Source: Escherichia coli
GTDB taxonomy: Bacteria > Pseudomonadota > Gammaproteobacteria > Enterobacterales > Enterobacteriaceae
DNA length: 1,227 nt
Assembly (NCBI RefSeq): GCF_003334815.1
Contig: NZ_QOWO01000103.1
Reading direction: 5' to 3' (one strand)
The notes beneath the pieces were generated by a model. It was not told where the DNA came from, ran no database searches, and saw only the letters and a program-made list of their open reading frames with translations. A program made the position numbers and the translations under genes. This document shows positions 1-1,227 of this stretch, in pieces. The stretch's first letter is position 1, and each line of letters opens with the position of its first letter.

Positions 1-1038
1 CGCGTCGTAACGCGTCATCAGTTCGTTCAGGCGTTCTTCTTCCGCCTCCGTCAGCACCGCTTCCGGCTCCGGCAGACTGCGGTATGTTCCGGCATCCTCA
101 CGGCACTCACCGACAGGCTCCATGCGTCCGGCGCACCATTCCCAGCCTTCGGCTTCCCGAAGGTGTTCAGCGACAGCCTGGAGTTTTTCCAGCAGGGCAG
201 CATCGAGCGCAACACAGTCCACATAGCCACCCTCGTCGTCGCTGAACAAATCGGTGCGCAGTTCATCTGGCGAGAAGGCATCAGCCCCCACAAAGCGGAA
301 TTTAGTGTTCCCCGCCACCGCCACTTCACTTTCGGTCACCAGACGACGAATGGTCTGTACATCCGGTTTTCCGCCCCATCCCGACTGGCAGGCGGCTTCA
401 AACACCTGCACCTGACGCGCGGTGTCGTTCTCCAGCGCCAGCGCCTGACAGTGCTCTGTGGTGATGCGGTCTTCTGCCAGCGCATCGAGGATGACAGGCG
501 CAAGGTCTGCCAGTTTCAGCATTCGCTGAACGTGGCGGGGCGAATAGCCCAGCAAATCACCGATTTGTGCAGGCGTTTTGCCTTCCTGCGCCATCGCACG
601 GAATCCGGCAATCTGTTCGGCAGGGTGCATATCCCGACGATGACCGTTTTCAGTCATTGATGCGGCAGTCGCCAGCTCCTGCGGAATAACCTTCACGCGT
701 ACAGGCCAGTCAGCCGGAATGATGCCACGCTCTGCCAGCATGTTGAGTGCAGCCAGTCGGCGACCACCTGCGGCGACACCGTAACGGTCACCAGGCAGGG
801 TATGCACGACCAGATTCTGCAGCAGTCCGACGCCCTTAATGGACTCCGCCAGTTCGCTGACGGACTCCGCAGAATACGGCACCGTGCGCACATTCAGCGG
901 TGATTTAATCAGCGAGGCCAGCGGCACGCTCACTTCCTCCGTCTGCGCCAGCAGGGCAGACAGGACAGTTTCCTGCGTTTTTACAGATTTACGGCTTGCT
1001 TTGCGGGTGGTTTCTGGTTCACACTTCGTTACAGGCAT
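1..1038 (-). CDS. ParB-like nuclease-domain protein (ParB/Srx N-terminal domain plus HTH), N-terminal 346 codons; 3' end runs off the window
   Basis: Hand translation of the reverse complement in the frame whose codons occupy + positions 1-3, 4-6, and so on. That + frame has no TTA, CTA or TCA triplet from 1 to 1131, so the minus frame is open from the in-frame stop at 1134..1132 down to the window edge. The first in-frame ATGs are at 1044..1042 and 1038..1036. An AAGGGG Shine-Dalgarno at 1050..1045 sits 6 nt before the ATG at 1038 and directly abuts the ATG at 1044, so 1038 is preferred. The protein has a GGRRLAA motif (residues 91-97, nt 748..768) resembling ParB box II GERRxRA, preceded by LLQNLVVH, and an HTH-like segment TPAQIGDLLGYSPRHVQRMLKL (about nt 511..576). 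The family assignment is from memory of ParB-family motifs, not a database search. Confidence 0.85.
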   Translation of the reverse strand, partial: MPVTKCEPETTRKASRKSVKTQETVLSALLAQTEEVSVPLASLIKSPLNVRTVPYSAESVSELAESIKGVGLLQNLVVHTLPGDRYGVAAGGRRLAALNMLAERGIIPADWPVRVKVIPQELATAASMTENGHRRDMHPAEQIAGFRAMAQEGKTPAQIGDLLGYSPRHVQRMLKLADLAPVILDALAEDRITTEHCQALALENDTARQVQVFEAACQSGWGGKPDVQTIRRLVTESEVAVAGNTKFRFVGADAFSPDELRTDLFSDDEGGYVDCVALDAALLEKLQAVAEHLREAEGWEWCAGRMEPVGECREDAGTYRSLPEPEAVLTEAEEERLNELMTRYDA

Positions 1039-1044
1039 AATCAT

Positions 1045-1050
1045 CCCCTT
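1045..1050 (-). promoter_or_regulatory. Shine-Dalgarno (AAGGGG) for the ParB-like CDS
   Basis: The minus strand reads 5'-AAGGGG-ATGATT-ATG; the purine-rich hexamer lies 6 nt upstream of the ATG at 1038..1036. Confidence 0.5.
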
Positions 1051-1066
1051 ATAATTGCTTATGTCC

Positions 1067-1090
1067 TGCCGGACGTTCGCGCGTCCGGCA
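1067..1090. repeat. Perfect 9-bp inverted repeat TGCCGGACG-N6-CGTCCGGCA (potential stem-loop or operator) in the intergenic spacer
   Basis: Base-by-base check: + 1067-1075 (tgccggacg) is the exact reverse complement of + 1082-1090 (cgtccggca), with a 6-nt spacer ttcgcg. It lies 6 nt after the DUF905-like stop and about 16 nt before the SD of the ParB-like gene. No U/T tract follows it on either strand. Confidence 0.6.
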
Positions 1091-1096
1091 CCTCTC

Positions 1097-1227
1097 TTAC
1101 TTAAGAATCCCGAAATCCCTGATGTACTGGTTCATCCAGTACCCGGCACCGTCCTCAAAATTCCAGGAGCGCCAGATCAACGTGCCATCCTGACGGACAA
1201 CCAGGCGAAAATGCGTTCCCTGATCAT
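1097..1227 (-). CDS. Small DUF905/UPF0401-like protein, C-terminal 42 codons plus stop; 5' end lies outside the window
   Basis: The minus-strand frame with codons at 1225..1223 and onward translates to [42 protein letters not shown], then a TAA stop (+ strand 1097..1099). This resembles my recollection of the E. coli YkfF C-terminus (..DDQGSHFRLVVRD..WRAWNFE..NRYIR..GI..). It is co-directional with, and 58 nt upstream of, the ParB-like start. Only a partial sequence is visible and the family recall is from memory. Confidence 0.6.

Follow-up and report, generated by a model that had tools for sequence, protein, structure and literature searches.

The ParB-like plasmid gene yfhA very probably starts at the second of two tandem in-frame ATG codons

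Considering the register in which its mRNA pairs with 16S rRNA, the conservation of its start region among alleles and the N-termini of its homologues, it is very probable that the ParB-like plasmid gene yfhA uses the second of two tandem ATG codons (ATG2) as its main start, with an N-terminus that we infer from the sequence. The same three lines of evidence support the claim of an earlier first-pass annotation that translation more likely begins at the second ATG. ATG2 is favored over the first codon (ATG1) because it lies at the optimal aligned distance from the Shine-Dalgarno (SD) sequence, DtoStart 13, as opposed to DtoStart 7 for ATG1, and because it is conserved in all of the alleles compared, while ATG1 is absent from five of them. 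DtoStart is counted from the mRNA base facing the 16S rRNA 3′-terminal nucleotide up to the start codon (PMC9841429). The whole stretch of DNA analyzed, hereafter the window, is 1,227 nucleotides long and contains the following features, in the order of transcription:

1097-1227, minus strand: 3′ part of a DUF905-family gene (ykfF in IncI nomenclature), ending in ...RDFGILK with its TAA stop codon at 1099-1097
1068-1089, minus strand: GC-rich hairpin GCCGGACG-CGCGAA-CGTCCGGC, a predicted fold with an 8-bp stem
1045-1051, minus strand: SD sequence UAAGGGG, 7 bp with the 16S rRNA 3′ end, −8.4 kcal/mol
1042-1044, minus strand: ATG1, in frame within the spacer between SD and start and most likely unused; DtoStart 7; ATA or another non-start sequence in five other alleles
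1036-1038, minus strand: ATG2, the conserved yfhA start codon; DtoStart 13; annotated start in 15/15 annotated records
1-1038, minus strand: first 346 of the 652 codons of yfhA/parB2, encoding the ParB/Srx-domain protein YfhA/ParB2 (WP_096488312.1)

Judged by its sequence and its neighbors, the window gene is the ParB-like yfhA/parB2 of the leading-region operon. The yfhA reading frame remains open past position 1, at the window edge, and its 346 codons are counted from ATG2. Upstream of it, the window holds the last 131 nt of the DUF905 gene (1227-1097; the annotated CDS 5898-6131 of L001 maps to window position 1097), followed by an intergenic region of 58 nt that contains both the hairpin and the SD sequence. 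Over its whole length, the window matched the IncK2/Z plasmid pMRY16-002_3 (NZ_AP017613.1) with 100% identity, and at least 5000 Enterobacteriaceae plasmids, the majority of which are conjugative, matched it with 90-99% identity. In the annotated record the genes are ordered ssb - DUF905 - yfhA - psiB - psiA, with antirestriction genes on the flanks, and no ParA gene was found next to yfhA in the annotated operon. This leading-region operon is carried by IncI, IncK and IncF conjugative plasmids. The gene is named yfhA in IncI plasmids and parB2 in pED208 and is a member of the ssi3/Frpo2 operon (PMC10104558, PMC8406263); the gene and context described there are identical to those of the window gene, with no difference. 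The annotated product name of WP_096488312.1 (652 aa) is "ParB/RepB/Spo0J family partition protein". The NCBIfam model TIGR00180 (parB_part) matched YfhA residues 38-212 with 64.2 bits, above its cut-off of 58.45, and precomputed PF02195 and PF17762 matches on YfhA homologues correspond to a ParB/Srx N-terminal domain plus a helix-turn-helix (HTH). Full-length equivalog models scored far under their cut-offs on YfhA (for example, 71.6 versus 278.6 for TIGR03734).

The first-pass annotation had read the minus strand at the yfhA start as AAGGGG-ATG-ATT-ATG-CCT, and this order was an exact match, with AAGGGG at 1050-1045, ATG1 at 1044-1042, ATT at 1041-1039, ATG2 at 1038-1036 and CCT at 1035-1033. 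It had also described the two ATG codons as in frame, and both indeed share the frame of the long open reading frame that leaves the window at position 1. As for the spacing, the distances of 0 nt from SD to ATG1 and 6 nt from SD to ATG2 held, but the SD sequence had been written one base too short: the U at 1051 pairs as well, so that the SD is UAAGGGG (1051-1045). One of its 7 pairs with the anti-SD is a G-U pair, and the 5′ region has no other strong anti-SD site. The tandem ATG is within chance expectation, because ATGNNNATG occurs once in the window versus 0.76 copies expected, and at least one copy was present in 104 of 200 shuffled sequences. The SD sequence is non-random, because 0.03 copies of TAAGGGG were expected versus the single copy in the window, and it was seen in only 6 of 200 shuffles. 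Between the upstream stop codon and ATG1, the window holds no in-frame ATG, GTG or TTG.

To place the start codons relative to the ribosome, the 3′ end of 16S rRNA was slid along the mRNA as anti-SD over positions 1074-1033. For a start site, at least 4 nt of complementarity to the 16S 3′ end are expected, and UAAGGGG provides 7 pairs at −8.4 kcal/mol. In this register ATG2 (DtoStart 13) falls within the range of functional aligned spacing, about DtoStart 12-16, and ATG1 (DtoStart 7) falls outside it. Chen and colleagues are said to have placed the optimal aligned SD spacing in E. coli, in 1994, at a DtoStart of about 13-14. E. coli genes also cluster at DtoStart 13-14, which is the experimental optimum too (PMC9841429). 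No alternative SD sequence was found at a suitable distance from ATG1 anywhere in the stretch over which the anti-SD was slid, and the 9-mers positioned to serve ATG1 (1057-1056) gave values from +2.5 to −0.3 kcal/mol. The only other weak site, AGGA at 1067-1064, was rejected as an SD for ATG1, being 25 nt away from it and lying partly beside the hairpin. With a Salis-type spacing penalty, the predicted rate at ATG1 was about 240-fold lower. With its strong SD (7 bp, −8.4 kcal/mol) and an AUG at DtoStart 13, the yfhA start thus has no essential difference from canonical SD-led initiation in E. coli, its one oddity being an extra in-frame AUG within the 6-nt spacer.

Experimental precedents for such a choice are the AUGUG and GUGUG sites of hdhA, secF and nagZ, which share with yfhA two close start codons served by one strong SD, the 5′ codon being too near the SD and excluded and the 3′ codon being used (PMC9841429). 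When a 5′ AUG was placed at DtoStart 10 or 11 behind a strong SD, reporter activity and toeprint were both zero and the 3′ codon was used exclusively (PMC9841429). ATG1 of yfhA, at DtoStart 7, is 3 positions shorter than the inactive DtoStart 10 and lies outside the range of DtoStart 10-16 that was assayed for these sites (PMC9841429). The two cases differ in their geometry: the AUGUG and GUGUG starts overlap and are out of frame, whereas the yfhA ATG codons share a frame and start 6 nt from each other. Choosing wrongly would add 2 residues at yfhA but lead to another reading frame at the AUGUG and GUGUG sites.

Comparison of start positions among homologues, a check proposed in the first-pass annotation, bore out its choice of codon, the ATG2 column being conserved and ATG1 being allele-specific. 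We fetched 18 related loci, whose start regions span identities of 80-100% and among which are ColIb-P9 and the F plasmid (NC_002483.1); together with the window they gave 19 sequences. These fell into six allele classes:

UAAGGGG-AUGAUU-AUG, DtoStart 13: window type, also ColIb-P9
UAAGGGG-AUAGUU-AUG, DtoStart 13: L008 (ATA GTT ATG)
UAAGGGG-AUAGUC-AUG, DtoStart 13: L010 and L011 (ATA GTC ATG)
UAAGGGG-AAUAAUC-AUG, DtoStart 14: L009 and L012 (AATAATC ATG)
AAGGAG-AAAUAU-AUG, DtoStart 13: L014 and L015 (AAATAT ATG)
GGGAGGU-ACUAACU-AUG, DtoStart 16: L003, L013, L016 and the F plasmid (TACTAACT ATG)

ATG2 was kept in 19/19 sequences and 6/6 allele classes, at DtoStart 13-16. ATG1 was present in a single class, the window type, and missing from the other five, that of the F plasmid included. 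Among the alleles the spacer is 6, 7 or 8 nt long, so that the reading frame is broken upstream of ATG2, while the alignment downstream of ATG2 is gapless and in frame. It follows that the sequence upstream of ATG2 evolves as non-coding DNA. Consistent with this arrangement, homologue N-termini align at the ATG2 position, with the pattern M-[S/P]-[V/A]-[T/V]. A single substitution separates ATG1 from the ATA found in the most similar TAAGGGG alleles; ATG1 probably arose from this ATA, which parsimony favors as the ancestral state. The 51 nt around the start are identical in the window and ColIb-P9. We also observed that the ribosome-binding site and roughly the first twelve yfhA codons (window positions of about 1000-1067, in L003, L008-L016 and L018) form a mosaic of at least six allele classes, including MPVTKCEP, MSVTKSEP, MSVVKSEP and MSVTESKA, between conserved flanks comprising the DUF905 end and the hairpin stem on one side and ...SRKPAKTQE onward on the other. 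This mosaic suggests recombination or a relaxed constraint on the N-terminal tail.

The allele that carries both ATG codons is widespread. Its exact 51-nt sequence was found in 2119 PLSDB plasmids, and 1437 out of 5426 complete genomes of E. coli, about a quarter, had a match to the 51 nt (at least 80% coverage). Identity was at least 99% in 1631 of 1643 matching E. coli records, and the matches were almost always plasmid-borne. As a separate observation, chromosomes rather than plasmids carried 19 of the 1662 matches that the 51-nt start region had in complete E. coli genomes; these are presumably integrated plasmid segments.

The first-pass annotation had warned that automated annotators may take ATG1 as the start. 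This risk did not materialize: 15/15 annotated records start at ATG2, ColIb-P9 and F among them, an agreement that is not independent evidence for the start because gene callers share the logic of SD spacing. Records with the tandem-ATG allele itself, in a sample of 7, all start at ATG2; inferring the pipelines from naming style, five of them carry RefSeq/PGAP-style names, and the other two are named "Chromosome-partitioning protein Spo0J" (OW848878) and "yfhA" (LC567070). In a collection of 15 billion proteins, the exact 652-aa form beginning with MPV was present and belonged to a cluster of 15,292 proteins, most of them with a length of 652 aa. The 654-aa form beginning with MIMPV had no exact counterpart in this collection. 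Likewise, none of the 135 family proteins retrieved begins with MIMPV, their N-termini being MSVTESKA (36), MPVTKCEP (27), MSVTESKT (14), MSATESKV (11), MSVTKSEP (5) and others. A few calls deviate (P0007, 682 aa, and P0026); they begin about 28 codons upstream, with MSSGISAF... and MPSVISGF..., and carry ...KGMIMPVTK internally, an error of another type than a start at ATG1. Because these calls run across the hairpin and into the 3′ end of the DUF905 gene, we judge them to be probably over-extended, in variants with an upstream ATG. A start further upstream of this kind was rejected for the window, which has no in-frame start codon there. The yfhA start is already correctly annotated at ATG2 and is an ordinary start site.

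In the sequence of events that we propose, the 16S rRNA 3′ end of the 30S subunit would pair with UAAGGGG (1051-1045), and the register of this pairing would bring ATG2 (1038-1036) into the P site, with an aligned spacing that is optimal. ATG1 (1044-1042), which begins right after the SD duplex on its 3′ side, would be out of reach of the P site as long as the SD is paired. It would therefore never be offered to the initiator tRNA and would be silent, as one triplet of a spacer that is non-coding. YfhA would thus begin with MPVTKCEP... Methionine aminopeptidase clips the initiator Met when the second residue is small, as Pro is, and because residue 2 of YfhA is Pro, the initiator Met would then be removed to leave PVTK...

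Alternatively, both ATG codons could be used, giving isoforms that begin with MIMPV... and MPV... and are 2 residues apart. The two AUG codons do share one frame, ATG1 lies in a predicted loop (probability of being unpaired 0.48, versus 0.33 for ATG2), and a low level of SD-independent initiation at ATG1 is conceivable. Ambiguous choice between neighboring E. coli start codons has moreover been documented at intermediate spacing, DtoStart 12/14 (PMC9841429), but ATG1, at DtoStart 7, lies five positions under this ambiguity window and also below the inactive DtoStart 10 and 11. Its absence from the five other alleles means that a longer isoform is no conserved feature, and the 2 additional residues would extend a poorly conserved Lys/Arg/Ser/Thr-rich tail, ahead of a ParB domain that starts near residue 38, with no obvious consequence. 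In E. coli, infB (the IF2 forms) and cheA (the long and short forms) are known to have true tandem in-frame starts and to yield two isoforms; both starts of such a gene are conserved, and each is served by a workable ribosome-binding site of its own. Although yfhA resembles them in that its open reading frame has a second in-frame start codon, its ATG1 is allele-specific and lacks a usable SD spacing, which sets it apart from dual-start genes. Considering these points together, we regard dual initiation as improbable.

A different question is whether the base that creates ATG1 has an effect of its own. UAAGGGGAUGAUU (window 1039-1051, minus strand) forms 12 pairs and 1 mismatch with the 3′-terminal 13 nt of 16S rRNA, at −12.8 kcal/mol, and the same 13-nt duplex gave −8.4 kcal/mol for L008 and −9.7 kcal/mol for L010, both of which are ATA alleles. 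The spacer GAUGAUU of the window allele thereby adds five pairs to the 16S tail (−12.8 versus −8.4 kcal/mol). This added pairing may be coincidental, or it may have a slight tuning effect. There is a slim chance that the change from ATA to ATG is non-neutral, such that either the 12-pair SD helix or a trickle of initiation at ATG1 would tune the burst of YfhA made from the single-stranded leading region of IncI1/IncK-type plasmids; if so, spacer tuning would be one contributor to the host-specific effects on transfer that yfhA is reported to have. The preprint on leading-region translation (10.1101/2025.04.03.647016) contains nothing on SD sequences or start codons.

A stricter proposal, that the ATG1-creating base was selected for regulation because the longer 16S complementarity tunes yfhA translation, seems slighter still. 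The mRNA UGAUU would pair with the 16S GAUCA, a run of five residues on the 5′ flank of the anti-SD that we take to be nucleotides 1530-1534, and the resulting duplex has the −12.8 kcal/mol mentioned above; in addition, this is a very frequent allele (2119 plasmids; 1437/5426 complete E. coli genomes). However, pairing so deep in the 16S tail would have to coexist with a P-site codon only 1 nt downstream, and the other alleles do without it. The abundance of the allele may instead mirror the success of IncI1 and IncF plasmids. Drift is sufficient to supply one substitution. Least credible of all is a start at ATG1 only (protein MIMPV...), which a longest-ORF rule would pick, ATG1 being the first ATG of the open reading frame with no in-frame start codon upstream, but which is opposed by the 0-nt distance to a single SD with no second SD in range, by the loss of ATG1 in homologous alleles that retain ATG2 and by the lack of any annotated or database protein beginning with MIMPV.

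Start at ATG2 remains our preferred reading, and the predicted mRNA structure does not alter it. A weak stem is predicted between 1059-1067 and 1033-1040 (minus strand), in which ATG2 pairs with ACAU just 3′ of the hairpin. In this fold ATG2 is mostly paired (probability of being unpaired 0.14-0.33), and the SD and ATG1 are in the loop. The stem is thermodynamically marginal, and an analogous GACAU/AUGUC pairing was predicted in L009, L011, L012 and L014/L015, but not in the F-type allele, L008 or L010. Structure was therefore rejected as a discriminator between the two codons, since the weak stem is not found in all alleles and must melt for either codon, so that it gives ATG1 no advantage.

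The 8-bp stem of the upstream hairpin was invariant in 19/19 sequences, and its loop varied in sequence and in length (6-8 nt). The hairpin was rejected as an intrinsic terminator, with no T-run following the stem and no call in a terminator scan. In an Rfam E-value search the hairpin had no match, the single hit being to RsmY at another place and at chance level (E = 0.82). The hairpin may serve mRNA processing or stability, or else it may be a structure formed by the single strand that is transferred.

The practical value of these results is small, as re-annotation of the widespread yfhA start is not needed. For expression or knock-out constructs of yfhA, the N-terminus to be used would be MPVTK..., and UAAGGGG should be retained together with its 6-nt spacer. 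More generally, yfhA offers what appears to be a clean natural example of a start set by aligned SD spacing and not by the first ATG.

Finally, a σ70-like promoter match (GTTACA-16 nt-TATAAT, 10/12) was observed on the plus strand at window positions 1028-1055. This predicted promoter is antisense to yfhA, lies over its start region and is directed into the DUF905 gene; 0.2 matches this good were expected in shuffled sequences.
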